Positions 2,880 through 42,610 of a stretch of DNA of 64,000 bases are shown in pieces. The stretch is from Psammoneis japonica (lineage: Eukaryota). A model generated the notes under the pieces. That model ran no database searches and had not been told where the DNA came from. It worked only from the letters and a program-made list of their open reading frames with translations. Numbering within the stretch: the first letter of the stretch is position 1; every line of letters begins with the position of its first letter. The translations under genes and the position numbers were made by a program. The stretch spans positions 62,001-126,000 of the forward strand of contig QPGO01000167.1 in the NCBI GenBank assembly GCA_008632985.1. The letters are read 5' to 3'.

Positions 2880-4960
2880 CATCGCCGGTGTCTGCATGTG
2901 TTGTGTGTGATGAGAGTCGTCATGGCGCTCGTGGAAAAACAAACTTGTTGCCACAACGTGTCACGACATGTTTTGTTTTTTCTTGGTTTTGTGATCATTG
3001 ATGATGTGGTGTACAATGGGAAGGAACAATCTTTTTGCATGACAGAGACTGATGACATCATGATGTGTGTGTTTGGAAATTGTGTGTGTGGTGGGGGGGC
3101 AACACACCAGAAAGCCACCATCGTTGTTCTGGCACACAGCCCTCTGGGTGTTGTGTGCCTGCTCACCCAAGCACACTGCACAGATGTTTTGGGCAGCTTC
3201 TTGGGAGAAACACAGAGGAGAAAACAAGTCAAAACAGAGAGAGAACACAATTGCTTCAGGCAGCTCGTCTGCTGCCCTGCTGGAACTTTTTGGCTGCAGT
3301 GCTGAAAACTCTGTGACATCAGAGTTTTTGGCAAAAAAATGCACCACATGTCATGCACAAACATTTCTGTGTGTGGTCTCCTTCAAAATTGTTTTGTGCT
3401 TTCTGTTTTGCAAAGGGCCCCAGAGGAGGCTCAGGGAGGCTGTGTGCGCTGCTCTTGTTCTGTGTTTTGCAAGAGCGCGCCTGTGCGGGCAAAGCAGAAA
3501 TGATGTGCTTCAAGGCAGAGGAGTTTTTGAGCATTTTTCAAAATTGCCTCTTTTTCCATTGGCAATCATTTGTGCATTCCTCCTCTCCTGGCACACATTT
3601 GCCCCCACACTCCTGACGTGATTCTTGCACCGCCGCGCCACCTGGCCACATCTCAAGCGAGTTCAGGGCACACCAAAATGACCTGACACAGCAGGAGACA
3701 CAGGTGAAAATGCAAGCAAATGACAACATGTCCACAAAACCTTTGTGTCAGTTGACAGAGCAATGTCTGGTTGGCGCAATGCACACTTTGCTTTTCAGAT
3801 GTTCATTGGATTCTCAGAGTGGTCCTGTCACACTGCTGGCATCATGTGTTGCATCATTGTGAGCCTTTGACTCTCTGGCGCAAACTGCACTTGCATCTCT
3901 GTGCACACACCCCTCCCAAACCACATTGTGTGATGTGGTTTGCCCACTCTGTGGGAGTTCTTGGCACATGCAATCATCTGTGCAATGAACCACCAAGTTG
4001 CTCAGAGTGTTTTTCTGGCATTGCAGCCATTTTGAACAAGATTCCAAAGATGGGCACACATGTCATTTTTTGACATTTTGTTTTTGGTGTCTCCCACACT
4101 GGAGGTGTGGTTGTTGGGATTTTTCATTCTTTGAGCACCACAGCAGCTGTGTCAAAGCATCCTGTTGATTTCCTGTTTTGACTTTTGAAGTCAAAATTCC
4201 TGGCACACTGTTTGGCTGGTGTGATGGGGGTGTGGGTCAATCCAGGACACATGGGTCTAGATGCAACAGCACTTGAAACGCAGACTTCTGCTTGACCCTT
4301 TGACCACCAGGGAAGCAAATCTGTGCCATTTTTCTTTTGTTCAGTGTGATGGCCTCAGACTTGTGAAGTTTTGTTTGGGTCCCCTTCAAGAAGTGCAAAG
4401 TTCTTGCACTCTCTTCTCAAGCTGCTGTTTTGTGATGCCCCTCTGTCCAAAAGTGCCCAACGCTGCACAAACAATGCTTTCAATTCATCCACACCCAAAT
4501 TTTGGTCTGTGTGCTGCACACAGGCCTGTTTCAGCAACTCTTCTGTGCATGAAAGACCTGCAAAATCCTGTCAGTGGCTGCAGCAAAGGTCAAAAGCTGA
4601 GTGCTTGCTTTTGCTGAGTTCTTCACTCATGTTTTGAACATGACAGGCTTGGCAAATGTGGAGAAAGTTGCGGTGCCACAAGAAAGTCAATGACACAATC
4701 AAGCACAATGTGCAGGTGTTCTTTGCAACAGCTCCCACTTCATTGCAGCAGCCATTTGTGTGCACCCTGTGTGGTCATTGTTGGCTGGCCATTGGACCCA
4801 CTGTAGATGCACTCCAGACACAGGTGGAATTTGTGTGACCCTGGGCTCACAGTGTTTGTCATCAAAAAGCAAGTTGCGCAAAGTGTCAACCGTCATGACT
4901 GAAATCGATTCCTTGAGGTCGTGGCCTGTTTTTTCGCGAAGCACTTTCAACTTGAAAGCA
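2880..4960. repeat. TpA-depleted degenerate repeat block A
   Basis: Almost no TA dinucleotides, TG/CA excess; 3330-3600 aligns with 7680-7960 and, inverted, with 18880-19250; boundaries approximate. Confidence 0.7.
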
Positions 4961-5056
4961 CGGGGATAAAGCACGATTTTTGTATGACTCATAACCCCTT
5001 CACATCCGATCACGGCCGGAGACGACTCTACGTAGCTACCGTAGCTGGAGCTCATG

Positions 5057-6954: not shown

Positions 6955-8700
6955 TGGTGTGCATGGGAGGAAGTCTGTCTGACTGTCTGCGCTCTCCAGA
7001 TGTTCTGGCCCAGACAGCTCATAATTTTAGTCAGTTGTGTTGTGCAACAACCATTCTGACTAAATGCTGCATTGCTGCTCGACAACATCACCGTTTTCTT
7101 GCGTCTCCCTCCTGTCCAACCATCAGGGGCTTGACCGACAGCAAAATGATGCTGGGGGTGCTGCTGCAAACTTTTTGTGGTGGGCTCCGGTTTTCTCCAT
7201 TTGTGAAGTGGGGGCACTTTTGTGATTTTGTTGTGGTGAGCCTCCCAGTTTTCTTGATTTCTTGAATCATGAGAGTTCCTCCATGACTCACATGGAGCCA
7301 TGACCCACTTGTTTGCATCATGGCAATGGCACCCACATGACCTTTGTCAACCCGTGCTTGGCATCATGGCCGTCTTTGCCCATCAGTTGGCAGCCTTTGC
7401 TGCATGCAGACTTTGTTGTGGGTTGAAAAATGTGGGCACAAGCTGGTGTGGCAGGCCTGTCACAGAGAGCAGATCTGTCAAATTCAGCGCCATTGTGGCC
7501 AAAAGCAAAGACGCAGTGCGGAAAACCAACGGGGCATTTTGCGGAAGCTCAAGATGGCTGCAAAAGAAGCTGTGCCCCCCCACAACGGCTGGCAAAGTAA
7601 AAAAAAGCTGACATGCTCCAGCTCCAGAGCAGGGCCTTGTGCTGTTAAAGTTTGACATTGACAGTTTTTGAGATGTGCCGTGTGATGCATGATGTCACAC
7701 ACGTGCATTTCTGTGTGTGCTCTCTTCTGCAAAATTGCCTCGTGCTCCCTGTTTTGCAAAGCCGCCAAAGGCCTGTTTTTTTTGCATTGTTGAAAGCAAA
7801 ATTGGCTGGGTGTGTGCTCTGGGATGCACACAAAATGCACCTGGGCAAGCCAGAAATGCTGTGTTTTAAGTGTGAAGGAGCCTGTTCATTCACAAAATTG
7901 CCTCTTTTTCTGATGACAAGCATCCATGTGCTCTTCATTGCCTGACAGTTTTGCTGCAGAGCATGCAAAGCAAACTTGGGGCATGCAACAATGTGACAGA
8001 CATGGAAAACATGACAAGGGGGAGGCTTGGCTCAAGTGCTGCAAACACAGAGATTCTCAACAGATTGTGCAGTTGGCACAGCACACAAACAGATGCTGGA
8101 AAAAAGAGCTGTGCAATTTTTAAGAGTCAAATCTTGTGGCTCTGCTTTCAATTGGCCAAGCAAGACAACAGCGCTGTGGAGCTTCCACTCATTTGATGAG
8201 ATGTGAGCTCTCCATGTGATGCCCTCAGCCTTGCTTTCACAATGAGGTTGTTGCCTTCCCATGAAACCCATTTTCCTGCAGGTTTAAAGAAAAGCCCAGG
8301 GTCTTTCTCCAACAAGGCCTTGCAGGCATTCCCTTTTGCTCCTTGTGATCTCAAAGCAGACCCACGCTGTTTGTTGCAGCTGGCACACAAGAAAGACTGG
8401 TGCAGCCTCCACTGCTCCAGGAGCCCCCTTGGCTCTCAAATCCACTGGCAGCAAAAATGACGGTGTCAAAAAAGCTGTTCGTTTTCTGTTGTCGTGGCGG
8501 CTCTTTGCTCTCTCTCTCTCTCTCTCTCTCTCTCACTTCTGCAGTTTTTGTTGCTGCCACTGCCGCTGTGGTTGTTCTGCTGTTTGCTGGGGAATTTCAG
8601 ATTGCAATGTTGCACACTTTGGTGGGCATCTTTTCTCACCGGGAATTGCACCAGAGAGAACGATTTGAAGACATTCAGGTGAGTCGTGCCTGAGTCCTGA
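6955..8700. repeat. TpA-depleted degenerate repeat block B
   Basis: TA nearly absent; shares core with blocks at 3330 and 18880; (CT)n at 8508-8534; preceded by ctctagctagctag. Confidence 0.7.
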
Positions 8701-10738: not shown

Positions 10739-11850
10739 ATGGCGGCTGCTGCTGCTCGTGCTCGTGCTCCAACCCAGTGGGATGCGACGAATGAGTCTAC
10801 TGGCGACATTGCGAGGGAGAAAGTGTCGTTCTTTCGATCGCTGTCGGATGAGGAAATCGCTCTCAGAAGCGCTGGTTCACATTTTGCCAGCATGGAAGAT
10901 CTCTGGGGACATGATGGTCTCCTCCAGTTTGGTTGGGCGAACTTTAATGCCACAACTCCTGCCACTGCGCAGGGAAGGTTGTGCAAATCATGTTACAATC
11001 ATCTTGACCAAGTGATTTGGGGAGCTGATGCTGGCTCAGCCACGATGAACCAACGTGGCAACGCTGTCAGGCTGGACACGTTTGGGGACACTCGTTGTCA
11101 GTCAGCGCACTTGCTTTCGCATGATGAATTGTGCCATGAGGCGCATGGCTTTCTTGCCGAGGCAGCAATCAGGATGAGCTTTGATCAACCAACCACTGCA
11201 GGCAAAAAAACATGGAGTGGTTGATCAATTCGCAATGTGAAACGAATGGGGGCGCTGCGCCAACTGGGGACGACTCACCCCGGCGTGGCTGAAGATTCTT
11301 CTGGCCGGTGTCCAAAACTGGCTGCAACGGCTCATCCCTGAAGAGCCATGCATTCAACAAGGTGCATCCACGTGAACAAGGAATGCACTGTGATGTAGAT
11401 GATCCTTCTGTTTTGATTGTGCCTTTGCCGACCTTGCAGCAGGTTGTGGATTGGGCCACAGACACAACGTCTGCTGCCGAGTGCAATGTTGTGGCAGTCA
11501 CCTTTGGTGACAATTCAACAGACACATCTTCCAACCTTGTGCATGCACTGCAAGAGTGCACACCTGCTGAAATTGAGGCTGGCAGATGTCTCTTGGAGAC
11601 TTTCCTCTTGGGATTGGCTGGTTCACTGAAGATGAAAGCAGTGCAAGAAAGCTTCGTGCAAGATGAACTACAAAGTCGAGCGCTGTCCCGACAGTCAAGC
11701 CTTGTGGACAATGTTTTGGACAAGACAACCACCAGGATTCGTGCTCCTTTTTTGTTGCAAGCAGGTGCAGCCATTCATGTTGCGAAGGGTGGGATGTCAT
11801 TGAGAACATCCTTGCCAGACCCATGGCTGCTGCTGTTGAAAGCAGCGACG
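10739..11850 (+). pseudogene. 5' part of a host gene (possible HNH-like nuclease fold) interrupted by the Gypsy element
   Basis: ORF pieces 10739-11224 and 11308-11850 with AHLL..C, NK, LIVP and PDPWLLLLKAA motifs; frameshift and stop; TA-depleted after ~11000. Confidence 0.6.
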
Positions 11851-12282
11851 TGCAGCATGCCTCGCTGCTGGACAACACGGCGAGACCGTGCACAAGCCTC
11901 TTGCACGTGGCAACGCAGTGTTGTTGACATGCACCTGGGAAGCATGACCACAGGAGGGCGTGGCTCTAAGTCTCAGGCAATTCCAGAAGGATGCCAAGAG
12001 AGCATCCGTGTGAAGCACACTGGCCCGTCGTCTGGCCCACGATGGCAGCGTGATTCCACACGATGACATCACTCGTGCATGGCGCGTGATGGCTTGATTC
12101 GCACGATCCATGATGCAAATGCACGATCGACCCAATGCGATCCAAATGCGAACGAGTGGGGATTTGGCAAGATTCCCTGTTCACACGATCCCATTTTCTC
12201 TGCTCTAAACCAGCTCACAATTTTCACAACGACAAAGTCGTAACACATCTTCTTTTTCAGCGCCTGGCACATGCACAGGGCA
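11851..12282 (+). repeat. Gypsy 5' LTR
   Basis: Starts tgcagcatgcc; colinear with 17725-18156; right end uncertain by 5 bp. Confidence 0.9.
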
Positions 12283-12343
12283 CAGCAACATTGCTCCCGC
12301 GTGTTGTGCGAGGTAACGAAATCTGCAGAAACGAAACTACGAA

Positions 12344-13435
12344 ATGTTGGCAGGACCGACAAATCTTAAAACGACCATGAAGAAGTGGATTGGGCCACCG
12401 ATTCTGTTTGCACGGCCGGAGAAGAAAGAGCTGCAGCAGGGCGAGCACCAGACGTTCAAGCCACGTAACAACCCTGCTGACCCGGACAGTCCAACGCACG
12501 AGATGGGCATTCCGCACCTTTCTGCGGCTGCATGCGAGACACTCCCAATCTTTCTGCGCAACGTGGATCGCGTGCGTGAAGGACAAAACATCGCGACCGG
12601 GCCAGCGAAATTTGCCCTTGTGCGTGACCTGCTGCAGGGTGATGCTCTGACGTCATTTGACAATGCCGCTGACAAGCAGGCATCCCAAACCAACGCTGCG
12701 CACGCAGCATGCGTCGCGAAGCTAAAGGAAAGTGTCTTCCCACACAGGGCGGCACTGTTGCAGAAGCGCTGTCTGAGGCGCTTCATGCGCAAGCCCGCAG
12801 AGGTTTCTGCTCATGACTGCGTCACGAGGGCTGTTGAAATTAACAGCTGTGTCTCTCAGTTTCCACCCGTGACGGAGGATGGAGAAGCACCGGCACCATT
12901 GCCCAATGACGAACTGTGCGACATGTTCGAGCATGGTGTGCCAAACGCATGGCAGAAGTTCATGATGCTGCAGAATTTTGATCCGTTGGCGCATGCTGTC
13001 GCCGAATTTATGCAGTTCTGCGAGCGCACCGAGCAGGTCGAGCTTGCCGCAGGCAACCGCGATCAACATGCTAGGGTCTCATGCAAGCGGGGACGTAGAA
13101 CAGACAATTCTGAGTCGTTGATCACGACCCAACCGAACACCCACGTGAAACGTGTCAAGACTGGACATTCCAGCAATGGAGGCAGCAAGCCCAGTGCAAA
13201 ACCTCGGAATGAGGAAGACGTTGATGCTCTCATCGGATCGAAGGTCAAGGAGTTCTTTGCCAATGCTCAGAAAAAGCACAAGGCACACGAGGAGGAGCTT
13301 GGTCACTTCAGCGACCTCAACTCAAGTGACTCCGAAGACTCGGACACTTGCCGACACGATGCAGGTGGTTTTAATCTCGCGCACGTGTGCGCGGTTGTTA
13401 GACTGTGCAGGTGTGTGCATGTGTGTGAGGTGTGA
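12344..13435 (+). pseudogene. Gypsy gag
   Basis: LLQGDALTSF, VFPHRAALLQKRCLRRFMRKP, VEINSCVSQFPP, GVPNAWQ; no Tyr in 363 aa. Confidence 0.8.
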
Positions 13436-14569
13436 GCAGGACACACGTAGAATTGCTGCTGAGTGATTGACATGCCGTGGATTTTCCGCCGGCACACAAT
13501 CTGCGTGGTCCACATGGAACATAAATTTGTGTTTGTCTCTGAGGCCATCACATGTCATTGATTTTGCTGAGGCCTCCAATGTGTGTGCACACCAATTCAA
13601 AAGTCTGACAGAACACCCCGAAAGAACTCTGGAATCTGGATAAAAAAATTTCCATTTAACGGTGCGAACAGGGTTTCCCCGAAGCGCTTCTCAAAATGTT
13701 CTCAGATTGGATGCAGCAAAACATCTGCCATTGGCAAAACAGAGTCACTGTCGGATGAACAGATCCCGTGTTCTTCGCGCGCAAACAACACGACAACGCA
13801 CAACAACACCATGGCGAGAAACGCGAGCGCCGTCCCCTCATCTACAAGCTGGGAATGCGAGATGCTGACGCGTTCCAGGTCCAGGTGGGACCTCGCACTG
13901 CTGAACTGTGACATCGACAGTTTTTTGAGTCTTGTCGCATGTCGCGCACGTAGATTTCTACATGATTTTTTCGATGTTTTGTGTCATTTTACGGTGCACT
14001 TGTTGAGAGATCCGTCCAACAACTTTTGACATTTTTTGTTGCAGCGCGATTCCACAATGTCTTAAGAATCGCGCAGGGCAGGCGAAGTTGCAAAAACGTC
14101 GAGTGGCAAGAGGCATGATTGCACCACAAACTTGGCCGTTTATTTGATGTTGAAGATGAACGCATCCATTGATTAAATTCTTGCACTACGGAGCTCGCAC
14201 GTAGAATTCTGCAGGCCCAATGTCACACGGAGTCCCACCCAGGGCTGGAACGCGTCTGCTGTTGAAGTGGTTGGACAACATGCATGCGCTGCATTCATGG
14301 GTCAAGTTGGGTTTCTTCTCGCTGCTTGTTGTTGCGTCATTTTACAACGTTTTGACCCACGCCGTGTTCTTTGCTTTGTTGCTTCTGCTCGTGCGCCACC
14401 AACAGCTCTTCCTGCAGGGTGTGGCCAGTTGCGCGGCTGCATCGAACCCAAACGTGCGCGACCAACTGGCCCCACCCCGGCTGACTCATGCATCAGATGA
14501 GTGCACAAATGAACAACTGAATTGCCATCGTACACGTGTTGCAGGCCAATCCCGCAAACGAGTTAAAAA

Positions 14570-17500
14570 GACTCATCTCACTCCAATCTTGTTCACAGCT
14601 GTGAACACTGAACATGGCAAGGGCAAGACTCAAACCATTAAGGCACTGCTAGATAGTGGCGCCAGCAGCACTCTACTCGACAGTCGACACTGTAAACGTC
14701 TGCGAAGCCATTCAACGGCTGAGACAAACTGGACTACGGTAGCAGGCTCGTTCAGTACGTCTAACGACTGTACCGTTAAATTTTGGTTACCAGAATTATC
14801 CGAAACTGCAGAACTTAAACATACCGTCCACGTACACAACGGAAAGTTGGGCAAGTACGATATGATTATTGGACGTGACATTCTGGAGACACAAGGCATT
14901 GATATTGTCTTCTCTAAACAGATGATAGAGTGGCCATTAGTCAATGGAGAAGTACCAATGAGGCACGTAGATGCTACGGTAGAAACCTCCTTCTATCTTC
15001 AAGATCCAGAAGCGTTACCTTCGGAAACCGACCGGATTTCGCGTATTTTAGACGCTAAGTACGCGCCGGCCTGCCTCGAGGACATAACGCGAGGGGCAAT
15101 AGGAATTTCTACAGTTCAATAAAACGACCTTTTGGCACTATTGAAACGCCATGAGTCCTTATTTGATGGGACATTAGGAGAATGGAAGGGAGAACCCTAC
15201 CATATCCAACTCAAGGAGGGTGTAGAACCATACCACGCTCGTCCGTATAAAGTACCTCGTGCGTACGAAGCTACGCTACGTAAAGAAGTAGAACGCCTAG
15301 TACGTATCGGTGTTCTCAAACGCGTTAACCGATCCCAATGGGCAGCTCCATCATTTATCATACCGAAGAAAGATTTAACGGTACGCTTTATTAATGATTT
15401 CAGAGAGCTGAATAAACGGATCAAGCGATTGCCTTATCCGATTCCTCATATCCAAGATATGCTACTTAAGCTCGAAGGCTTTATGTGGGCTACATCACTG
15501 GATTTAAATGTGGGCTGTTATCATGTCCGATTGGACACTGACAGTAAGAAGCTCTGCACGCTCATCTTCCCGTGGGGCAAGTATGAGATGCAGGTGTTGC
15601 CCATGGGATCATGTGATTCGCCAGACATTTTCCAAGAACGCATGTCAGGCTCATTTGAAGATCTGTCGTTCGTTCGAACGCACTCAGATGACCTTCTCGT
15701 CGTGACGAAAGGCACCCATGAAGATCACCTCAACAAACTTGAAGAAGTTTTGTTGAGGGTCCAGAAAGCAGGACTAAAAGTCATGCAACTAAATCTCACT
15801 TCTGTCAAACCCAATTAGAACACTTGGGTTGTCTGGTTGACAGAGACGGAATGTGACCAACACCTGACAAAGTCGACGCCATCAAGCGAATCGCGACCCC
15901 AACCAACAAACGCGACCCATGCTCATTTGTTGGCATGGTGAGCTGCTGCCGCGACACGTGGATTAGACGTTCTGAAGTCTTGGCTCCGCCAACACGACTC
16001 GCAAGCGAGGCTGTTGAGTGGGAGTGGATGTCCGTTGAAGACGAGGCGCTCGAAACCGTTGAACGGGTGACATCGGATGATGTTTTGTTGTCACATCCTG
16101 ATTTTAACAAACCCTTTGAGATGCACGCTGATGCCTCTAAATGTCAATTGGGAGCAGCCACATCCCAAGACAACAAACCCATCACCTTTTGCAGCAGAAA
16201 GCTCAACAGTGCGCAATTAAATTGTGCAACAACGGAGAGAGAATTGCTCGCCATTGTGGAGACGTTGAAAGTGCAATTGCACGTGCTGATCATAAAAATC
16301 TCACGTGCGCAGCATTCAACACCGAGCGCGTTATGCGCTGGTGCTTGACATGCGAAGAATGCGGCCCCGAATTACGCTGTGTCAAGGGTGCCCACAACCC
16401 AGTCGCTGACGCTCTCAGTCGCCTTCGGCCAGCACCCAGCTTGCCTTCCGAGGCCAATCCGGATGTGAAAGACACTCCATTGAGTCGTCCTTTACACGAA
16501 GCTTTTAATGCAGACGCGCAAGATGAGACATCTCTGCCTGTTAGCTTCAAGCGCATTCAAAAAGCACAACAAAAGGACAAGTGCCTGCTCTCACGAGTTG
16601 AGGACTCGTCCGACTGCTCCATTTGCGCGTGTCGTGGGGGAGGGTCATCACGACAGTTGATCTGTCATAAGGACAAAATCGCAGCACCACAGTCATTGCA
16701 GGTTCCGCCAACTGAATGGCACCACAAGACACTGTGTCATCCAGGTGAGACACGCACGGAAATGTCCATTGCCCAGCACTTCTGCTGGCCCAGTGTGAGG
16801 TCTACGGTGCATTTTACGTGCGTTGAGTGCGATCGATGCCAGAAGACAACACGCCGAACGCAGTGTTGTGGGAAGCCACCAGAAAAGGTCGCAGAGATAA
16901 TTCCATGGGAGACTCCATGCACAGATGTGACAGGGCCACACAAAATTCAAAGACGCGGAAAGGACACCTTGCAATTGTGGGCAGTCACAATGATTGACCC
17001 AGCAACCGGGTGGTTTGAGATTAAAGAAGTGTCTGTGAAACGCGCAGACGTCGCAGCAAACGTCGTAGAACAAACTTGGCTGTGCAGACATCCGTGGCCA
17101 ACCCAGGTGGTTTATGACCGTGGGACAGAATTTGTGGCAGAATTTAGCCAGATGATTAAAAATGACTGTGGGATTTTGAAGAAACCCATGAGCAAACGGA
17201 ATCCACAGGCGAATGCCACAGTGGAACGTGCACGCCAGACACTTGGCAACATGGTGCGTTGCTTTTCAGTGCAGGACATGGAACTGGACGAAGATGACCC
17301 ATGGAGTGGCATCCTCTCCGCAGTGGCCTTCGCTGTTGGAGCTGTGGCACATGCGACCACGCGTGCAAGTCCCGCGCAATTGGTCTTCGGACGCGATGCG
17401 GTTTTGTCTGTTGCCCATCATGCCAAGTGGAAGCACACAGAAACCAGAAAGCAGAAGCTTGTCCACTTAAACAACAAGCGTGAAAATCAGAAATGCAAGG

Positions 17501-17690
17501 AGTGTCAATGTGCCGCAGGGCAATTGGTGCTTGTCAAACAGGAACAATCCTCTAAGTGCGGTTCTGACAGCCATGCAGGACCCACCAGAGTTGTCCGTGT
17601 GTGTGACAACAGCACGTTGCATGTCCAGAACGGAGCGCTGACAGATGCGTGCAATCTGCGGCAGATTGTGCCCTGTCACCAGCAAGACAT
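14570..17690 (+). pseudogene. Gypsy pol (protease, RT, RNase H, integrase)
   Basis: LLDSGAS protease; DFRELNKRI and THSDDLL (expected YxDD) in RT; ADASKCQLGA RNase H; HH..LCHPG...C..C and VVYDRGTEF integrase; stops and frameshifts. Confidence 0.92.
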
Positions 17691-17724
17691 CCTGTCACTT
17701 GACGGCCCCAATCATGGGGGAGTG

Positions 17725-18156
17725 TGCAGTGTGCCTCGCTGCTGGACAACACGGCGAGACCGTGCATGAGCCTCTTGTGCGTGGCAACGCAGCATTGTCA
17801 ACACGCACCTGGGAAGCACGACCACAGGAGGGCGTGGCTCCAAGTCTTGGGCAATTCCAGAAGGATGCCAAGAGAGCATCCGTGTGAAGCACACTGGCCC
17901 GTCGTCTGGCCCACGATGGCAGCGTGATTCCACACGATGACATCACTCGTGCATGGCGCGTGATGGCTTGATTCGCACGATCCACAATGCGAACGCACGA
18001 TCGATTTAACACGATCCAAATGCGAATGAATGGGGATTTGGCAAGATTCCCTGTTCACACGATCCCATTTTCTCTGCTCTAAACTAGCTCATAATTTTCA
18101 CAACGACAAAGTCGTAACACATCTTCTTTTTCAGCGCCCAGTGCATGCATGGGGCA
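17725..18156 (+). repeat. Gypsy 3' LTR
   Basis: Starts tgcagtgtgcc directly after the PPT; same length as the 5' LTR. Confidence 0.9.
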
Positions 18157-18360: not shown

Positions 18361-21300
18361 CCACTTCATTCACGGTTTGCAGCACAGTGACCAAACTGAA
18401 ATCTGCCTTGTCTTGCCACCGCCCCCTCCTTCCTGGATGGATGATGTGGACATGGTGGTTTCCACCACTGTCACAGGGGACCATCTGTTGCAGCAGCAGT
18501 GGCACCCGCCAGAGAGCTTTTGATCAGAGCCACTGCCACTGCCGTCCACACATGACCTGTTGGTGTGGTGTCTGCAGCATTGTTGCCACAATTTCTCAGC
18601 AACATTGCTGCTGCTGCAGCCATCACCTTCCTTGTCCCACATGCCATTTGTGGCACTGTGGGAATTTCAGCCCACATGCCCCTGTTTCCTTCACACACTC
18701 GCTGTCGTCGTCATCATCTGCACCATCTCCCTCATGATGATGATTGTTGCCTTTGTTGTCAACAAGAAAGAGGTGGTTGGTTTTGCTGCAGCAGTGGGCA
18801 GAGAAAGCAGGAGAGGGAGATGGGGTGCACTCTCCAGATGCAGGCAGAGATCCATTTGACATTGGGCCCACAGAATTTCACGTGCAAGCTCTGCAGCAAA
18901 ATTGTCAGGTGATGAAGGCATTGATGATCACAAACAAAAAAAGATGCAACTCCTCAAAGAACAAACAAACTCATCCATGGTCAAAGTGCACTGTTTCTTG
19001 TTTGCCCAGGAACACTCTCTTCAGACATCATGGAATGCACCTGACTGGCAGGTTTTCATTCTTGTGAACATGCAGAGCAAATGGTCCTTGGCTTTACAAA
19101 ACAGGCAGGGAGTGGCATGATGTGAAACAATTCTGTGGAAGAGCACCCACAGAGACATGTGTGTGTGTGTGTGTGCAACACATGGTGCATGACAAAAAAA
19201 GTTCATGTCACATGTCAGCACTGCAAGCTCCAACCTGGGGCTGGAACATGTCATGGGGCAGCCCACTGCGTTCCTTCCTTCGATCAGAATGAATCAATCT
19301 GGCCAAGGCTGTGGATTGGCCTCATGCTGGAGCTGCTGCAAAGAACACTTTGGCCTGCAATGCCAGCTGCTTTCAGCAAGCCCAACATTTTGATTGACCT
19401 GGTGTGCAGTCTTCTGGGTTCTGTCTGTCCACCTCACTGCTTTTGTCTGCAATCTTGTTGCTGTGTTTGTGTGCAACCCAAACCATTGTGGCAAAAGCAA
19501 AGACATGCCTCAGCTTGGCTCACTCTTTGGAGTTGTCTGGTTTGCACAAATTGTGTTGTGACATCAACAGGTGCTGCCTGTTGCACATCACAAGTTTGAA
19601 GTTCATTGAGAACTTCCAGGTGAACCACAGCCGCCAAAGCAGCCAGGGCAAGTGTGCAGCGAGTGGCACAGCAGCGTTGTGTGGCCAAAGCAAAGATGTG
19701 CTTCAACTTGGCTCACTCTTTGGAGTCATCTGGTTTGCACAAATTGTGTTGTGGCAACAACAAGTGCCTGCAGCAAATCACAAGTTTGAAGTTCATCAGG
19801 AACTTCCAGGTGGACCACAGTGCAAGTGCAGCGATTGGTGCAGGAAGCCTCCTCTTTGCAGAGAGGGCTTCCTTTTGGCGACATCCATTTGAAAATGCGG
19901 AAGAAGCCGAAAGGGCAGTCAAGTGCCCAAAAGAATGCTTGTCATGGATGGCAAATTGCGTTTCTCCCCCTCTGCCTGATCTGGTTCGAGCCCACATTTT
20001 TGAACACTGCACGTCGCTGCCTTGTCCTGCCTTGTTTTTTGAGCCAGGCGATTTGTGCTTGCAGGTCGTTTGGTCTGACGACGATCAGAACCGGATCAGT
20101 TTGGCAGACTCATTTTACATTGCTCGAAAGACAGTGGGTTGAGCTTTTTGTTGATGCAGTTCTTGCCGCATCCCGTTCTCCCGGCACTGGTTGCATTTTT
20201 TCACTGTGGTGGTTCTGTCGTTGTCAAAGTGTGTGCCAGGCAGATGTGTTTTCATCCCAGGTGAGAAACTTTTGGACACATCACGAGGTTTTCTACGTGT
20301 TTCTGCATGAGACGTACATTTGGCACCAAAAATCTTAGTAAAAAACGAGCTCCATGACAGCAAAAACACATTTTTTTCCATGTCTCGAACCACAAACCAC
20401 AATTCGCGCAAACCGAAAATGGCACCATGCCGTCGCCATGAACTCGTCCATTCTTGCACCAATGGATGTTGTGACTGAGAAGGCAAGAATGCCGAGACAG
20501 GTCAACAAGACAACGCTCAATGCGATGATGTGGTTGAAAATTTGATCTTTGTTTTTTGTTGTGCCTTGTGGATGGCCTTTTGACTCATGATGTTTTTGAT
20601 GCCTCTTTCTCTCTTCCTCCGCTTGCGAAGCAGGATTCTCATCAACGCGCTGCTCCATCTGCTTGACACCGGATGCTGACAATGAAGAATGTTTCTGTGA
20701 CACGTTGCTGTGATTCTTGTGATGCATCGTCCGCACTTTGAGTCGTCATGGACGACGCTTTTGGGTCGCGCGACAACATCAGATTTCGCCACCGACAAGA
20801 GAATCGTCATGTGTTCTGTTTTGAGGGTGTGTGAGGATAAAGAATCTCAGATGCAAGTGTGACAGTTTCATTGTTGTAAAGTAGAACAACACCATCAGCG
20901 ACATCTTGGTGTTGCAGCCATTTTGTTTTATTCTAAGATAGAACTGGTCATTTTGAGCGGTGAAATTTTGTCAACATTTCATCTTTAACTCTGCCCAGGC
21001 ATGTCAAATCACACAACAACCAGACACACATTGAACTTTGACGCTGCCATTTCAATCCCATTGTTTTATTCACTCAAGCATCCCACACAGGTCAACAAAT
21101 CAGTCGATCTTTGAAATGGCCGATCGCGCAAAAAAATCACGTGCGAAGTCAGTTCCCCCGATTTTTCTCGCGCAAATGACAGAGTTAGAACACCGTTCTT
21201 TTTTGGTGTGAGCTCTTTGTGCAATGAACAATGCGTGCATTCTTTCAAAGCAGTCAGATTCGGTGAAAGAAACAGTGGAACAGTCTCTCAAATGCACCAG

Positions 21301-21877: not shown

Positions 21878-22252
21878 TGTCAGCCTGTCTGTGCCTGTCG
21901 TGTGATGGACAGACTGGATGCGGATGATGGCCAGACCATTTAGATGGACGAGCAGATCTCTCTGAGATCTGCTTCTCACTTTCTCATCTACCAGCACTCA
22001 TGTTGTCACAGTCCTGGTGCTTTGGGGAGTCTTTCACACCTCTGTCACTGTCGACCTTCTTCGGCACTCTGTCAGGTTGTGGCCATGTGCTGTGCCACAG
22101 ACCTCTGCGCCAAGCTTTCTGTCTCGATTCATTTGTTTTGTGAGCCGATCGAGCGAGCCTCATCGTCTGATCCAACAACTTTTTGTCTCGCTTTCCCGGC
22201 ATTTTTCACGACCGTAGAAACACACCAGATTTCTGCGCGTGCATGACCAAAA

Positions 22253-24366
22253 ATGGCTCCACCCACTAAAACCATGGCGTCTCCCGACCTTGCAAAAGCC
22301 GCTCCTGCGTCAATTGCAGAGATCTGCTGTGAATTTGAGGCACATGCAACGACACCACATCCACATCAGTGCCTGAGTGCGGTTCGCACAGACTCCACAA
22401 CTGATCTCGATCGATTTTTTGACGATCCAGAGCATGTGCAACCCAAGAACGATTTTGCGGACATGCTTCGCGATTGTTTCATCCATGAAGCATTTCCACC
22501 TTACACAGCTGATCCCATGGATGTAGAATCAATCAAGACGATTGTGGATCAAGCCCTGTTCAGACTTCTTGACCCTCAAAGGCCTCATCCAGTCCGCCTG
22601 ACAACTCTGATCTCATCAAAGATGATCAAGACGAATCTTCAGAACGGCGAACAATCTCTGTTCATCATCACATCTGCCCAACACATGCATGTTGATCCAG
22701 ACATGACATGGAACTGTCGCAATTGGAACGAGTTCTCTCTTGCACCCCACCAGAAGAACCAGCAGCCTCCGTCTTCTTCTCAGAAACCCACAGGACCTGC
22801 TGCATTGACTGTGACTGACTTGGTGACTGCACTCAACACATGCACGTCGAGCCATGCTCCGCCTTCTACAGCTTCTGCTGAGACATCTGGAAGCACCACA
22901 TCTTCCGCAACATCGAAATACCTCTTCAATCCGAACACACTTCCCACAGACGTTCGTGCACGCTACGACCACAAAGAAGACGGAAAAGTTGCTCTTCAGA
23001 GCTCTCTCGTCCCTTGCGACCATGGATTCCGTCACTGTGTTGATGCATCCGATCGCATCATCCTCAACGATGGCACCCTTTTCATCATGAGCTCGACTCC
23101 TGATCAGAAAATGCTGTTCAGAGAACCTCCTGCATGTCATGACGACTCTCCCCCTGGGATGCGAGCATGGCACCAAAATCTCCAACGTCATGCCTTTGAT
23201 TCAGGTTGCTGCATGCATCCCCTGTGGCGTTTTGCTGAGGATCACGGTGGTGAGAAGGGTTTTGAGATCGGCAACGGCAAGGATGATGACTTACCTCAAC
23301 GCATGTACGTCCACTGCAAGGAAGCTCAGAGTTCTCTCCACAAAATCCTCTCCAAGTCGGACATGTTCCCCAAGAATGGCAAGCATCATCGGATTGTTGC
23401 ATCGTGCCACGGCAACGGATGCAAGGCTCTAAAGCAGATCATCTACGAGAATCACCCTGCCTTTGATCATGATGCTGCTGGACTTGTTGATTCCATCCCA
23501 TCCAAGGCAATCAATCTTCAACGGACTGCCACATGTTCTTCAATGATTTCCCACAGCTGCGTGCCTGCATTTTTGACACGGACTCTACGTTGAACGATCC
23601 ACGGGAGATGACTGTCTTTGTCAAGAACACCAAGTGCTCCAAGTTCTTGTCACATGCTGCCAGAGATGAACGGAAGTCTCCAGCCATGCAGAAGAAGCAC
23701 ACGGATGCACAGATTGTCAAGACTCTCTCTGATTTCCTCCGCCAACCGGATGGTCCATCCCTTCCCACTCGCATGACGCAATCCAACCCATGCCGTGCAT
23801 GGAATCGAGCAGATGCTTCTACACGACGCACACCTGCCAATGTCAACTCCACCCAGATCCCTGAGACACCCCTCCGTGAACCAGTTGATGACTCTGCCAC
23901 TGAAGATCCTGGTGCAGAATCTCCACCTCCGGATGCCTTTGACACTCTTTGCGACGAATTGCACGAACTCGAGATCCCATCTGCGGACGAAGATCGAATC
24001 CTTCACCATGCACACTCGGCTTCAGTCTGTGGGCTGAAAGTCACTCCGCATGAAGCCTCCAAGAAACCATGTCTTGTCTGCTCCGGAGAGCATTTGTTTG
24101 ATGACTGTCCAGTCCTGAAGAATGGCCCGTACATCAAGGGCTTCCACATCCGTTTTTGTCAATTCTTAAAATGGGAAGCAGCTGTGCGTGCTTCTGAGTT
24201 CCAAGGACCCCAAGGTTTGCTCCCACCTCATCATGACAATCCTGAAAATCCGCCTCCGTCTGGTGCTCAGCCCTCGGATTTTCAATCGGGCCGTCGCAGC
24301 TGGTTTCGGATCTCCGACGCTGCCCGTCATCTCCTCACCGAGACAAGACCAATGTCAGCGGGATGA
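22253..24366 (+). pseudogene. Copia 1 gag-like region
   Basis: Two overlapping ORFs (frameshift ~23500); zinc knuckle CLVCSGEHLFDDCP. Confidence 0.75.
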
Positions 24367-27300
24367 CCTTGAAAGAGGGACTAACCGTCTCGTCATCTGC
24401 CGCTGCAGTGCCTCTTTCCTCACAGATTGATGTGGATGCCACCCCTTCCACCTCCACGAAGACATCTTTTGACACCAACACGTTGCCCGACGATGACCCT
24501 GCTCCTCAAGAAGCCTCCGTTGATGCTGCTCATGTTCCGGATCCTTTGGAACAGGGGAGGGAAGACCCAGAAACACCGGTTTTTGAGGAACATGTTGATC
24601 TCACCTGTGGTGATGTGGCTGTTGAAGACGGTTTTGCTGCTGTCAATTCTGTTCGTGTTGCTCCGATCGATCCACACCAGGCAAATCACTCACCTGAGCC
24701 GGAACTGCTGCGATCCACTTGTTCTGTCAATGGGGTAAACTTTGCTCCGAATGAACGTTGTGCTCAGTTGGATGCAGGTGCCGATGTTGCGTGTGCAGGC
24801 GAGCGTGACCTCCTCCATCGCTGCCAAGACTTCACTCCATCCCATCCCTGTCCCCTTGCCGTCAACCTGGCCCTTGGCCACCAAGCTGTCCCAGTTGGAT
24901 TCGGCTGTCTTCGCATCCCTGCAGAGAACTCTGATGGCTGTGTTGAGGTCCGTGCATGCCACCACCCACAGATCCAATCTACGTTGGTTGATGAGTGACT
25001 CCTCCTTCGTCAAAATGGTTCTCGTCACACAGATTGCAATGTCGATTGCATTCTCAAGTTCCATGATCTCGGCACCTGCAAGTTTGTTGCACGACACCGA
25101 TTGCGCAAGAGTCAGGATGTTGTCATTCATGGAAAATTGATCAACGGAAAATGTTTCACTCACCCTCTCATTCTCCCGGAATCTAACGACGAACTGGATG
25201 CATCTGTCGAGCGCCTCAAGACTGCTGATCCTTCTTTTGCCGATGAGTGTGAAGCAGTCTCTGCGCACATGATTGAGACTTGTCGCACCCACCAACATGA
25301 AGCTCTTCGTGATGAACGCAAGTTGATCCCCCGTGTCTGTCAAGACATTCCTTTCGAGAAGCATGCTGAGAAGAACATTCCTGTCCAGTCTCTCAAGGCT
25401 GACACGGAACGTCTTTTATGGCATCAGCGACTTGGTCATCCGAGTGATCACTGCCTTTGTCATGCCCATGAACATGTTGATGGCGTCCCCAAGTTTGCCC
25501 ACGGAACTTCTCCTCTCAACACTTGTCCCACATGCACATGAGCCAAGCAGACGAAGGAACCTGCCGGTCCGAACACTGCTCTTGCTGCCACCCAACCATG
25601 CCAAGGCCTTGCGATTGATTTTTCCTTCTCTGGCCTGCGCTCCAAGAACTCGGAGCACACCAAGGACTGTGTTGGATTGAATGGCGAGACTTGTTGGATT
25701 GCTGTTTATGATCATAAAACGAAGCGTCTCCATGGTGCGACTTGTGTCTCCAAGGCAACCCCTTTGAATTGGATTCGCCACTTTCTGGAAGAGCACTCAC
25801 CAAAATGTCCAGACAAACATGCATTTGTGGATCAAGGAGGTGAATCACATCAGAACCCAGAAGTTGCCGACTCTTCGAGGATGACTTTCATTGTGCAATT
25901 CGTCCTGCGGGAAAAGATGCTTCAAATCAGAGTGGCCCAGTGGAATGCAGTCATTTGTCTGTTGCCAATGCCATCCGGGCGATGCCAATCGGTGCCGATT
26001 TGCCCATCAAATTCTGGCCCCATGCTTTTCATCATTTCATTCGAATCAACAACGCTTTGCCATCCCGCGGACAACCTGCTGCTCCGATTGCTCTCGCTGC
26101 TGGTCGGAAGGATGATTTCAAGAACATTCGTGCGTTTGGTTGTCGAGTGTGGGTGCGTGCGTCGAATCACCGCCCAGCGAAATTTCGGTCTGTCTCTCGC
26201 AAGGGAACATTCTCAGGCTGTCTTCCGGACACTGCCAAGAACATTCTTTGGTGTGACACTGAGACATCGCGTGTCAAGCTTGCCAAGCACATTCGCTGCG
26301 ATGAGGGCATGAATGATCTTCCCCACGACTCTCTTCCGCCGAATGTGGTTCACTTGGAACGCACTCAAGATGGCAAGGCTTTGCCTGCCAAGACTGAAGA
26401 AACCACGATGGATGAGCTCCACTTTCATGGGAATCCCTTTGCCAAGACCATCAAGCATGTGATGAAGGGACCATTTGCTGATCCCACATTTGGACTTTCC
26501 TTGGCTGCGGACAATCTCTGTCGGCGAGTGTTTGTCTCTGACACCAAGCGTGGTTCTCCTGCTGCGCGTCTTTTCTCCTCTTCGAAGGCCACCCGTGACA
26601 AGATCAAGGGTGTGTGCATCGCATCGATTGATGATCATCCTGTGTCACGGCAGAGGATGCCATCAAACGTTTTCAGCAAGTCTGTGATTCTGGCAAGACT
26701 CATTTTGAAATTGAATTCGCGCCGGAACGTCGCCTGGACTCTCAAGCCCTACAACGTGCTCTGATGGAACACAACACACATGCACCGAGTCCTGATCCTG
26801 ATGATGAGCATGTTCCGGAAATCACCAACGCCGATGTACGTGCTGTTGCTGCCATCCGCCTGCCCGACATTGATTTCTCCGAAATGGATGATGACGATGT
26901 CCCTCCACCATTCTTTGTTGATTGTGACAATGGTGTGGTCAATGTCTGTGCTGTCTCATCTCACGCTGTTGCTCCAGAGGAACAAGCCTTGGGTGCTTTC
27001 ACCCGCCATTGCCTCAAGAAGTTGGACACGTGGCCTGAATGGCATGCAGGTGAATTCAAACAACTTGACCAGTTCCATGAGTTGGGGATGTTTGGTGCAC
27101 CGATTAAACGACCCAAGGATGCTGTCGCACTTCGTCCACATTGGCAATGTGACCTCAAGCATGATGGCACATGGCACTCTCGACAGTGCTGTGATGGATC
27201 TCCCCGTGCTGCGTCGACACTACATCGACTCTGCTCGACGCACTCATCCTGTGTTGAGCAGCCTGTCCAATGCATGTTTTTTGCCCTTGCTGCGACCATG

Positions 27301-28667
27301 AGCCATCCTGTCTTTGGCAGGGATGCTCGTGATGCCTGTGCACACTCTCCACGACCGTCACACCCCGTGTGTGTTGCCACAGACAAGGCATGTGCAACCT
27401 GGTGCAAGGCTCGGTTTGGTGTTGACTTGGACAGGAGCATGGCACTCCCGATGCAACATGCACTTCAAGGACACCCAGAAGCCGGCGTGCTCTGGGAGAT
27501 GCACATCAACGGCATTTTGTCTGATGTGAATCTGCTTTTTCGCAACACTGCTCATGACAAATGCACCCACTCTGCTGCTTTTGAAGGACACAAGATCTTG
27601 CTCCTCCGTCAGGTTGATGATTTCTCTCTCGCTTGTCCTGAAGAGTCCACTGTGATCAAGATCTGTGACAAGATTGGCAAAGCTCTCCAATTGGAATCGG
27701 AAACCTCTCCGCCGTTCAAGCATCTTGGCATGATTGACGAATTCAATGGTGCAGACATTCATCAATGCAATGACTCCATTGGCATTGCTGTTCACAGCTG
27801 TGCAGATCGGGTTTGTGCCTCGCATGGTTGGTCGACACCGACGGACGAGGAACTTGACGATGACTGCAAGGCTGCGCCACTGCCTGTTGACTCTGTTCGC
27901 GAACTGTGTGATGCCATTGGCCCAGCTGAAGGAACCCCGGAGCATGCGGAACTGCAACAAGCTGCTGGTTTCGGCCACCGAACTCTTCTTGGCGAATTGT
28001 TGCATGCGTGCGTTGTCTGTCGACTGGACACTGGGTGTGCTGTCACTGCTCTATCCAAGTTCTCGACCTGTCCTGCTGTGGTTCACTGTGACGCGCTCAA
28101 AGGAATGTGCAAGTGCCTTCGACGCACTGGACATTGGGAGTTGAACTGCAGGAAGCCCACCCGAGACTCCAAACTGCCCACCTGCCCCTTCGAACGTCTC
28201 ACTCCGGACCCGACCTTACCGTCGTTCCCTTGTCCTGCGTGTGATCATCAACTCGTTGCTTTCTTGGATGCTGCTTGTGGCAATGACCTCCGCAACCATC
28301 ATTCTACGACTGGCTGTGCTTGCATGCCAGCTGGTGCTGCTGTGTCTTTTCAGTGCAAGACCCAATCGGTGGCCGCTGCGAGCTCTACGGAAGCTGAATT
28401 TTGTGCTGCTGGAACTGCTGCCAAGCATGTCCCATGCCTTCGTCACGTTCTACAAGACCCAGGCTTCCCTCAGACGGAGCCCACCCGACTGAGCGATCCC
28501 GTCACATTGAGACTCAGTTTTTTGTGATCCAAGAATGGAAGGAAGCGGGCAAGATTGTCGCGAGACATGTTCCTGGCATTGTCAACCCTGGCGATGACCT
28601 TGCCAAGGCCTTTGGCTGGGTGCCACACGCTCGCCACGCTCGACGCATGATGGGACACCACTGTTGA
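24363..28667 (+). pseudogene. Copia 1 pol
   Basis: QLDAGA protease, LWHQRLGH..C..C, VDQGGE integrase, ALQGHPEAG and RQVDDF in RT, SSTEAEF, RSRHIETQFF, NPGDDLAK RNase H. Confidence 0.9.
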
Positions 28668-29084
28668 TGTTTTTTTCCGCGGTGGCCTCCCTGCTGCGCA
28701 TTGCCCTCTTGTTTGATGGTGCATTGGGCATGGACACTTCTCGTGTCCTGTGTCTGGTCTCTCTATTTTTTCCTCACATCATCCCCATTCTTTGGTTTGA
28801 TCTGCGCTGTTCTCTGTGTTGAGACATTGCAGATCAGGGGAGGGTGTCAGCCCATCTGTGCCTGTCGCATGATGGACAGACTGGATGCGGATGATGGCTG
28901 GACCATTTGGATAGACGAGCAGATCTCTCTGAGATCTGCTTCTCACTTTCTCATCTGCTGGCACTCGTGTTGTCACAGTCCTGGCACTTCAGGGAGTCTT
29001 TCACACCTCTGTCACTGTCGACCTTCGGCATTCTGTCAAAAACCACAATTGTGAAGCATGGGGTCGGCTGTCGGTGCTTGGCCC

Positions 29085-32259: not shown

Positions 32260-32638
32260 NNNNNNNNNNNNNNNNNNNNNNNNNNNNNNNNNNNNNNNNN
32301 NNNNNNNNNNNNNNNNNNNNNNNNNNNNNNNNNNNNNNNNNNNNNNNNNNNNNNNNNNNNNNNNNNNNNNNNNNNNNNNNNNNNNNNNNNNNNNNNNNNN
32401 NNNNNNNNNNNNNNNNNNNNNNNNNNNNNNNNNNNNNNNNNNNNNNNNNNNNNNNNNNNNNNNNNNNNNNNNNNNNNNNNNNNNNNNNNNNNNNNNNNNN
32501 NNNNNNNNNNNNNNNNNNNNNNNNNNNNNNNNNNNNNNNNNNNNNNNNNNNNNNNNNNNNNNNNNNNNNNNNNNNNNNNNNNNNNNNNNNNNNNNNNNNN
32601 NNNNNNNNNNNNNNNNNNNNNNNNNNNNNNNNNNNNNN
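32260..32638. other. Assembly gap (N run)
   Basis: Run of n characters. Confidence 1.
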
Positions 32639-37390: not shown

Positions 37391-37489
37391 CTTATAGACT
37401 AAAATATAATTTCTCAAAGAAGGACTAATGTTTTGTTGCTTGAACATAGCGGACTTTACAAAACGTTGGGCGACAAAGTGGCTAAGCCC

Positions 37490-37812
37490 TCTAGACTCTT
37501 TAGGCCCTAGAGAGAGCGAGAGAGCTCGCTTGCCCTTTTGCAATATCTTACCTCTGCCGTTGCTAGTACTGTAGTCCTAACTGCTGCTACCTATCCTCGC
37601 TCTACGCTTTACCGTAGAGAATTAGTAGCTACTTCTACTCTCTCTAGAGCTAGCGTGTAGTAGATAGTTCAGTTAGGGGGGTAACGACTAACTCTCTACC
37701 TATCTTGTAGACCCTACCAGTACGCCGCCCGGTAGTCTCTACTACTCTCTAGCTAGAGGGAGGCCCTCTACCCTTTAGCTACTCTCTACTCTACCACTCT
37801 AGAGAGTCTACC
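37490..37812. repeat. CTAG/CTAC/TAGAG-rich low-complexity tract
   Basis: Dense permutations of ctctag, ctact, tagag, agtag. Confidence 0.75.
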
Positions 37813-37998
37813 GCACGATGCGATAGGTCGAAACGGACAACGAACGGACTAACTGTTGGTCTGTCTGTATTTACGTTTCCCTTGACACGCGTCGCAACCG
37901 CCGCGCGCACAACGATCACTTTCGATGAAAATCGAAAAGACACTTTGGTTGCGTTTGCCTTATTTTTCGTCGTGCTACAGTCTTGACAGCGATACAAC

Positions 37999-41459: not shown

Positions 41460-42610
41460 TCTAATGCTGAAGTGGCACACTGTAAAAAAGTGCCCCCGGA
41501 TGGAAAGAGGTTGCAACGGCCGGTGGCAGTGGAGAGTTTTGGGGGAGCGAGAATGTGGTGTCTTGAGATTTCATGAAGTTGCCGTGCAACTGCAATGCTG
41601 CTTCCAAGGTTGATGGAAATGTGCACCTGGGGCAGTGGTTGTGGAAAATGTGTGTTGTGCACCAGCCAGGTCAGATGCACTGAATGTTGCCAGACATGAT
41701 GCACTCAACAACAATGTGAGAAAGCAGCGTCGGCACACACAGGCCTGTTCCAGCTCCAGGTGCTCCGCGCGGGTTCGATTCCCATCATTTGGAAAATTTG
41801 TGCATTCAGCGCAATTAACTTTTTCCAAATTCGTTTTTTGCCAAATCGAAGGGCAGGTGTACACTTTGCATGTATTTTTGGGTGTACACTCACCTTTCGA
41901 TTTTCGAAACGATCAAAATTGAAGGAGTCAATTGCGCTAAACTGCGCAGAAAATCGGCCTCTCGAGTGATGAAAAGCAGAGCACCTGGAGCTGGAACAGG
42001 CCCACACCACAGTGCCTGACTTGATGCTTGGCCAGCCATTGGCAAGGAATGGTGCTGCCAATGGCCCAAAGTGATTTTGGCAGCCACACCTGGCTGCATG
42101 TGCACATTCATGTCAGCAAATGGCAGTGTTAAAGCAGCCCACCTCTGAATCACATAAACCCATTGTTTGGTGCAGCAAAGCACCTTGTTGTGAACAAGAA
42201 AAAAGTGGCTCTCTTAAAGTGACCATCAGAACCTGCCTTCTTGAGCAGCTCTGGCACTGTTGTCACTCTTTCAGCCCCAGCCATGACAGAGAGCCTTCAA
42301 CTTGCAGAGCTCACCAAATGAAAAGGAAAAAGTGACTTCTGGGTTTGTGGCAGCACCAGACCCAGCTCTTCAAGTCTGGTCTGCTCCAGATCTGCAATTT
42401 CAACAAAACCTTTGTGTGGCAATGCAAACCCAGACCCCCCTCCAGTGTCATTGTGTCTCCATTGATGGACAAGGCTGTGTTTCCTGTTGGGACTGCTGAT
42501 TGCCTTCTGCCATGGCTGGTGGCACAGAAGTCAAAAAGAAAGAGCACGTTGAGCTGTCATGAGTGTGATGGGGAAAGTGTGTCACTTTCGTGTTGCACCC
42601 AACAATGGAC
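41460..42610. repeat. TpA-depleted block D between the tandem duplicates
   Basis: TA largely absent; contains a ~260-bp imperfect palindrome at 41742-42002. Confidence 0.65.

Follow-up and report, generated by a model that had tools for sequence, protein, structure and literature searches.

How can a stretch of DNA stay clean in the middle of a mobile element that has otherwise lost nearly all of its TA dinucleotides? The question is raised by a Ty3/Gypsy-type long terminal repeat (LTR) retroelement that occupies positions 11850-18156 of a 64,000-nucleotide stretch of the Psammoneis japonica genome (contig QPGO01000167.1; hereafter the window, to which all coordinates refer). An island of 891 bp within its pol region (14630-15520) holds 72 TA, or 8.08 per 100 bp, versus 51 TA in 4949 bp, or 1.03 per 100 bp, in the flanks, counted as the element without its nested repeat and without the right margin of the island. 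If the flank rate applied, an island with 72 or more TA would have a Poisson probability of 4e-39. These counts confirm the unmutated ~0.9-kb island in gypsy pol that the first-pass annotation had reported, and the peptides and the DNA string quoted there are present in the sequence. We tentatively read the island as a later homologous patch, derived from an intact copy of the same family, either genomic or complementary DNA (cDNA).

The other dinucleotides of the pyrimidine-purine class point to the fate of the missing TA. TG and CA are present in the island at 4.71 and 6.17 per 100 bp, respectively, and in the flanks at 9-12 per 100 bp each, whereas CG is nearly equal (6.17 per 100 bp in the island versus 5.2-6.9 in the flanks). 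The sum of all pyrimidine-purine steps is likewise equal, at 25.1 per 100 bp in the island and 26.0-27.7 in the flanks, and therefore the flanks appear to be island-type sequence in which TA was converted to TG or CA. The same bias pervades the window, where TA occurs at 0.38 of expectation and TG and CA at about 1.4, in a patchy distribution: blocks with a TA observed/expected ratio of 0.0-0.25 alternate with blocks at ~0.5-0.8. Segmentation places the depleted blocks at ~2.9-5.0, 7.0-8.8, 10.7-29.1, 41.5-43.1, 46.3-54.1, 58.7-59.7 and 61.1-64.0 kb, separated by DNA with a normal TA content, and indicates that the mutation is confined to repeats or foreign DNA, with the neighboring normal DNA spared. 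The retroelement sits in an 18.3-kb depleted block (~10.75-29.05 kb), and the island is the sole cluster of at least five closely spaced TA in the ~35 kb of depleted DNA of the window, as would befit a rare secondary event such as a patch.

Comparison with relatives indicates that the flanks used to resemble the island. Altogether, 81 relatives of at least 900 amino acids align over 14496-17682, and 30 columns of the alignment contain Tyr in at least 60% of them. The island core keeps Tyr in five of five such columns, and a sixth, weaker column, at 15486, is occupied by Trp. The margin columns at 15516, 15519 and 15582 read Cys, Tyr and Tyr, respectively, and in the 3' flank (15681-17584) none of the 21 columns retains Tyr, which is replaced by Cys (11), His (8), Phe (1) and Thr (1). 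A broader set of 455 columns, each at least 80% conserved, gives the same picture: 115 of the 122 columns in the island are unchanged, two show TA-type changes, both at the margin (15510 and 15516), and five show other changes, whereas in the 3' flank 258 are unchanged and 73 are changed, including 38 single TA>TG or TA>CA replacements, 6 of the CG type and 29 others.

At the level of DNA, 78 metagenomic relatives show no TA depletion as a group (whole-locus TA observed/expected ratio of 0.35-1.07, mostly 0.6-0.9). In the region that matches the reverse transcriptase (RT) part of the island, these relatives contain 2.0-10.9 TA per 100 bp (median 5.9); the corresponding figures are 8.8 for the island and 1.0 for the flank beside it. 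The replacement of Tyr by Cys or His in the 3' flank, the TA-type column changes and the position of the island within the range of the relatives all support the earlier proposal that the element was originally TA-rich. Searches for a reference from the same family yielded more distant sequences: the best match in protein searches was only 72-79%, the metagenome scan with the island RT peptide recovered the 78 loci at 73-74% protein identity at best, and an exact 28-mer from the island has no match in the viral contig collection.

The LTRs, 433 bp each and 92% identical, allow us to place the loss of TA in time. They differ at 34 bases in 21 events, namely, 11 CA-versus-TG doublets, 3 cases of TA versus CA, 5 of CG versus TG or CA, one CCC versus TTT, and one other; thus, 14 of the 21 events involve only TA, TG and CA states. 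A CA-versus-TG doublet would mean that a single ancestral TA was mutated on opposite strands in the two LTRs. Because the LTRs are identical at insertion and now carry CA versus TG, the erasure apparently followed insertion and acted on integrated DNA. As a separate observation, the CCC (12131-12133, 5' LTR) versus TTT (18005-18007, 3' LTR) difference comprises three adjacent transitions of which only the last is a TA/CA site.

Both strands were affected along the 3' flank as well, with 42 inferred single-step events that consist of 25 TG and 17 CA. These outcomes form 21 runs, with 21.2 expected, so the strand appears to have been chosen at random at each site, leaving no long one-strand tracts. 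The idea that the mutator works in tracts, put forward in the first-pass annotation, thus finds no support in one sense, the strand-wise one, at these 42 sites. The sites also differ in susceptibility by context, as measured across all depleted blocks of the window (~33.6 kb). Relative to normal DNA, the leftover TA density is 0.44 for TTAA, 0.33 for CTAA/TTAG and 0.22 for CTAC/GTAG, and other contexts are nearly erased (ATAT 0.00, ATAC/GTAT 0.013, ATAG/CTAT 0.04, GTAC 0.08); the leftover TA belong mainly to the TTAA, CTAA, CTAC and GTAA classes. The mutator thus seems to read beyond the dinucleotide. Taken together, the base changes evidently record a TA-rich insert on which a TpA-specific mutator acted, turning TA into TG or CA, with a random strand at each site, down to ~1 TA per 100 bp.

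Several further observations concern the depleted DNA of the window. The retroelement with the island has lost TA and retained CG (observed/expected ~0.9), whereas in the blocks 3001-5000, 7001-8500, 18501-20000, 42001-42500, 52501-54000, 59001-59500 and 63001-64000, CG is at 0.0-0.34 of expectation; saturation of TA loss thus seems to come well ahead of the decay of CG. TG and CA rise to ~2 in these CG-poor blocks. Direct repeats in 21878-29026 (182 nt, 91% identical, 6967 bp apart) suggest another LTR element, in a region that is fully TA-depleted without any hole. In unmutated DNA, an intergenic segment 5' of an open reading frame (ORF; 37480-37830) is rich in CTA/TAG and CTCT words, with TA at 1.53 and TG and CA at 0.5-0.7 of expectation and with no repeat structure.

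The edges of the island bear most directly on its origin. On the left, the edge falls somewhere between two TA sites, 14564 and 14639; protein conservation gave no finer placement, the columns to the left of 14640 being too variable. The right edge is a mosaic of ~100 bp with no clean break: the site at 15505 is kept, those at 15509 and 15516 are lost, 15519 is kept, 15524 is lost, 15545 and 15582 are kept, and all inferred TA sites from 15609 on are lost. The context classes of the three TA kept in the margin, at 15519, 15545 and 15582, persist in mutated DNA at ~0.10, 0.18 and 0.013 of the normal density, respectively, and by a hand estimate their joint survival in saturated DNA would have a probability of ~1e-4; therefore, the border zone appears to be real and ~100 bp wide. 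Outside it, the density of leftover TA is flat, at ~1 per 100 bp, from either LTR up to the edges of the island. This flat profile, which favors the patch, speaks against a front moving inward from the ends of the element, the other mode of mutator action that had been suggested for this locus. Together with the core, which is free of TA-type changes, it implies an all-or-none state rather than a gradient of rates.

Contigs from sequencing runs provide an outside view of the locus. Five runs were found, none of them an RNA run, and four were compared with the window, all as contigs: X1, the only sizeable DNA run; X2, a low-coverage run with the same organism label; X3; and X5, a separate metagenome. 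The individual matches and positions cited below come from listings of 32 pieces, each of at most 340 nt, out of more than 6500, and of 40 out of 302 variant places. The region is matched by 6418 X1 contigs, the retroelement family has multiple copies, intact as well as mutated ones within a single read set, and 245 of 273 X1 variant places are transitions. A contig from X2 (15198-15360) differs from the island by one mismatch in 163 nt, and two contigs from X5 (15136-15286 and 15295-15445) by one mismatch in 151 nt each; thus, island-like sequence of the type required of a donor exists elsewhere, in support of the patch. Against the flanks, the X2 and X5 contigs show 10-24 differences per 146-215 nt among the matches listed.

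Other contigs resemble erased versions of the island itself. Among the matches listed, those of X1 within 14705-15503 show 16-28 differences from the island per 171-254 nt, and one of X5 (15436-15581) shows 16 in 146 nt. The segment 15250-15503 contains 24 TA, and the number of differences is thus close to the number of TA in the island, which suggests that the island region was erased in other copies and is not immune in general. Of the words sampled from 13800-16400, a fraction of 0.54 occurs in X1; by our own arithmetic, the island and the nested repeat together make up about as much. At 14 flank positions among the variant places listed, no X1 contig carries the letter of the window, and at 15014, within the island, the G of the window accounts for ~66 of 6365 X1 depth units, a minority of ~1%. 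X1 thus seems to contain the minority letter of the island without these flanks as assembled, and the genome behind this run may not have the flanks in this form. Among the same places, nearly all X1 depth differs from the window at one place in the island and at 14 in the non-nested flanks; ten of the latter are neither TA-type nor CG-type, and by a hand estimate the contrast between island and flanks is not significant. Several apparent junctions at a depth of ~65 (14575-14944 and 15010-15586 among them) are short-sided and resemble patchy matches of diverged copies, and were not used.

The interpretation that we place first, ahead of escape in place and, after it, of an assembly artefact, starts from the TA-rich Ty3/Gypsy-type copy that inserted and was then swept by the TpA-specific mutator of the genome to ~1 TA per 100 bp. 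Homologous repair would later have replaced ~0.9 kb (~14.6-15.6 kb) with the sequence of an intact copy from this family, the template being either genomic (ectopic gene conversion) or a retroelement cDNA. Repair of mismatches at the end of the patch would leave the mosaic right margin, and a patch younger than the last round of TA erasure would still be clean. A single tblastn frame (14496-15782) crosses both edges, and the island is homologous to, collinear with and in frame with the flanks, with no indels at the seams; therefore, it is a replacement-type segment rather than a foreign insertion. Tracts of 0.9 kb with a mosaic end are typical of gene conversion. A patch could thus account, if only tentatively, for the collinear fit of the island and its size, for its being unique and nearly identical to intact sequence, and for an all-or-none core combined with a mosaic end.

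Several points weigh against this interpretation. No full-length donor was found in the protein searches, the metagenome scan or the 28-mer search of viral contigs, and none of the contig pieces listed spans an edge of the island. The flanks are ~10% diverged from intact copies, which should hinder homologous repair. The island contains an in-frame TAA and a private letter at 15014; given the latter, the island is no copy of the majority sequence, and ageing in place fits equally well. Outside the TA and CG types, the LTRs show few differences (2 events over 433 bp, or 4 bases when the first two of CCC/TTT are included), so divergence offers no means of dating the island as younger than its flanks. 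Finally, a mosaic margin would also be expected at the edge of a protected zone.

That last point leads to the alternative we rank second, on balance a doubtful one, in which the island is original sequence that the mutator never reached. The targeting signal, which in that case might be a chromatin or DNA mark or DNA access, would have to contain a stable 0.9-kb gap with borders under ~100 bp. The kept TA scattered among lost sites at the right margin do resemble a graded border, the private letter and the in-frame stop fit a sequence that aged in place, and mutated blocks elsewhere in the window likewise end sharply against normal DNA. However, other copies appear to be mutated over the same region, so the sequence itself is not protective, and, since the island is most similar to intact members of the family, targeting guided by homology or by small RNAs should strike it first. 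There is, moreover, no other hole in ~35 kb of mutated DNA and no known mechanism that would hold a 0.9-kb gap open with at least 86% of the neighboring sites mutated. Sparing due to properties of the island itself, that is, purifying selection on a domesticated protease/RT fragment or resistant TA contexts, is hardly credible. The protease frame (14205-15122) is open, as selection would have it, but 59 of the 72 island TA could have changed to TG or CA synonymously and are still TA, the in-frame TAA separates the protease from the RT, and 37 island TA belong to the nearly erased classes (ATAT, ATAC, ATAG, GTAC and ATAA); the silent-capable sites and the susceptible-class TA, respectively, refute selection and context as sufficient causes. 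A nested foreign insertion is ruled out by the continuous reading frame across the island.

The island might also be a product of assembly, through a chimeric join across a repeat, gap filling, or polishing with reads from intact copies; we consider this unlikely, and rank it third. The family is multi-copy, with both kinds of members in one read set, the assembly is scaffolded (379 N at 32260-32638 of the window), and the X1 observations fit, including the word share of 0.54, close to that of the island plus the nested repeat, the 14 listed flank positions without the letter of the window alongside the presence of the island letter at 15014, and the lack of an edge-spanning contig among those listed. 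Yet artefacts built from a consensus (collapse, pooled gap filling, mis-polishing) would carry the majority letter at 15014, where the window has the ~1% minority; a chimera of two sources would give one clean switch, whereas 15505-15582 reads kept, lost, lost, kept, lost, kept, kept; both seams are in frame and free of indels; and a truly mutated, unique sequence should be easy to assemble, which leaves little reason for its replacement. A mosaic formed before insertion, by template switching of the cDNA between co-packaged mutated and intact RNAs or by partial editing of the transcript, would be collinear and in frame as well, and recombinant cDNAs are common in retroelements. We nevertheless find this very unlikely: opposite CA/TG outcomes at 11 LTR sites cannot predate insertion because both LTRs derive from one template, and both strands are affected (25 TG, 17 CA), unlike in the editing of a sense RNA. 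Since the mutator acted after insertion, such a mosaic would still need the island to be spared.

The architecture of the element that houses the island is summarized in Table 1. The order of Pfam domains, protease (weak), RVT_1, RNase H and integrase, is that of Ty3/Gypsy elements. The RVP match, to residues 142-232 of the ORF 14205-15119, is weak, at 21.2 bits versus a cut-off of 20.7, but the D-S-G columns of the protease are invariant in 73 relatives. The first ~50 codons of the RT domain lie in the island and the remainder is mutated. The relatives align in three frames (14496-15782, 15764-16291 and 16288-17682), implying two frameshifts in the 3' part of the element. The RNase H-like domain lies beyond the first, near 15776-15784 according to the tblastn frames, where contigs show an extra base in other copies, and the integrase domains lie beyond the second, near 16288; the rve match falls below its curated cut-off. 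A Pfam scan of the frame in the gag position returned no families. Comparison of the two ends of the element for a target-site duplication gave a 3-base match (GAC), in adjoining DNA that is itself TA-erased. No second copy of the retroelement is present within the window.

A nested element with terminal inverted repeats (TIRs) interrupts the 5' part. Its TIRs of 28 nt (13864-13891 and 14232-14259) are 82% complementary. Contigs of X1, X2 and X3 connect 13863 straight to 14262, and therefore the nested element is absent from other copies of the retroelement. Over 13864-14261, the summed contig depth is ~10 times that of the neighboring bins.

Table 1. Features of the retroelement and of the island, in window coordinates
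Feature	Position	Strand	Details
5' LTR	11850-12282	+	433 bp; 3 TA; direct repeat of 17724-18156
Open frame in gag position, TA-depleted	12317-13435	+	ORF list
Nested inverted-repeat element, MITE-like (miniature inverted-repeat transposable element), ~398 bp	13864-14261	.	TIRs; 8 TA (TA-depleted)
Mutated 5' flank directly left of the island	14262-14629	+	3 TA in 368 bp
Aspartic protease domain, inside the island	14628-14900	+	Pfam RVP, E 3.7e-4
Island core	14639-15509	+	71 TA in 871 bp; zero inferred TA loss
In-frame TAA stop, inside the island	15120-15122	+	Relatives: Gln 51, Lys 16, Arg 12
Reverse transcriptase domain	15360-15782	+	Pfam RVT_1, E 3.7e-15
Right margin, mosaic	15510-15608	+	TA kept at 15519, 15545, 15582; lost at 15509/10, 15516, 15524/25
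RNase H-like domain, mutated	16025-16285	+	Pfam RT_RNaseH_2, E 9.8e-21
Integrase zinc-binding and core domains, mutated	16711-17205	+	Integrase_H2C2, E 8.7e-8; rve, E 2.3e-5
Purine run, polypurine-tract-like	17716-17722	+	One base 5' of the 3' LTR; role inferred from position alone
3' LTR	17724-18156	+	433 bp; 5 TA

Saturated flanks around a clean 0.9 kb amount to a before-and-after comparison within one molecule. The comparison within this copy reveals the original TA density, the random choice of strand at each site, the hierarchy of contexts, the step-like outcome and the loss of TA outpacing the decay of CG. The explanations differ in what they imply. If conversion produced the island, intact copies can serve to restore mutated ones in part; this would weaken the defense and bear on the persistence of transposon families. 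If the island escaped, it locates the targeting signal: provided that it is real and was spared in place, which we regard as questionable, the mutator would follow a heritable, local state of DNA or chromatin whose borders measure less than ~100 bp. Neither homology nor copy number would then be its guide, since no other part of this copy is as similar to the intact family as the spared stretch. In that case the locus would offer a natural tool for mapping the targeting signal of a eukaryotic defense based on adenine editing in DNA. If the island is an artefact, it calls for caution with mutation maps drawn from repeat-rich assemblies.

So far, a single preprint from 2026, on an unrelated alga, has described the TpA-specific erasure of foreign DNA, and it was also the only relevant work recovered by a literature search on TpA or A-to-G hypermutation, retrotransposons and diatoms. 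It reports hypermutation restricted to TpA in the giant-virus and virophage DNA integrated in Bigelowiella natans: in mutation-accumulation lines, 231 of 302 de novo mutations fell within two viral insertions, where every one of them hit TA, and the rate was ~6e-7 per site per generation (Mettrop et al., bioRxiv 10.64898/2026.01.13.699255). An ADAT2-like deaminase is proposed there as a candidate, and the preference of ADAR for U before the edited A is cited (10.64898/2026.01.13.699255). The two systems share the exclusive targeting of TA, with TG or CA as the outcome depending on the strand, the restriction to bounded blocks of foreign or silent DNA, and the long-term depletion of TA with enrichment of CA and TG, RT-bearing sequences included. 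They differ in that the B. natans insertions still hold many TA (3.3% and 9.2% of dinucleotides) whereas the element with the island is near saturation, and in that the B. natans mutations were observed de novo whereas those described here, in an LTR retrotransposon of another organism, are deduced from sequence. The TpA signature itself matches the B. natans report; what is new is the internal unmutated stretch, there being no description of an unmutated hole inside a hypermutated element in the abstract, results or discussion of the preprint.

Repeat-induced point mutation (RIP), known from Neurospora and other ascomycetes, is likewise post-insertion, dinucleotide-specific, limited to transitions, active on both strands and destructive of reading frames. 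However, RIP converts CA to TA and enriches TA, the opposite of the removal of TA and enrichment of CA and TG seen here, where the mutated blocks have TA observed/expected ratios of 0.0-0.25 and TG and CA at 1.3-2.0. RIP also needs duplicated DNA and acts in the sexual phase. Gene conversion among retrotransposons, including the cDNA-templated conversion of yeast Ty elements, yields collinear, in-frame replacements of ~1 kb with patchy ends and needs intact donors, in line with the patch that we tentatively favor; compared with this model, no donor, heteroduplex or event was observed for the island, and a recipient ~10% diverged from the donors is unfavorable. APOBEC3G, which acts on retroviral cDNA, and ADAR, which acts on the RNA of repeats, also produce deaminase-type transitions with a preference for the neighboring base and can leave spared stretches, but they act before integration and on a single strand, whereas in this element the LTRs diverged independently and both strands were affected.

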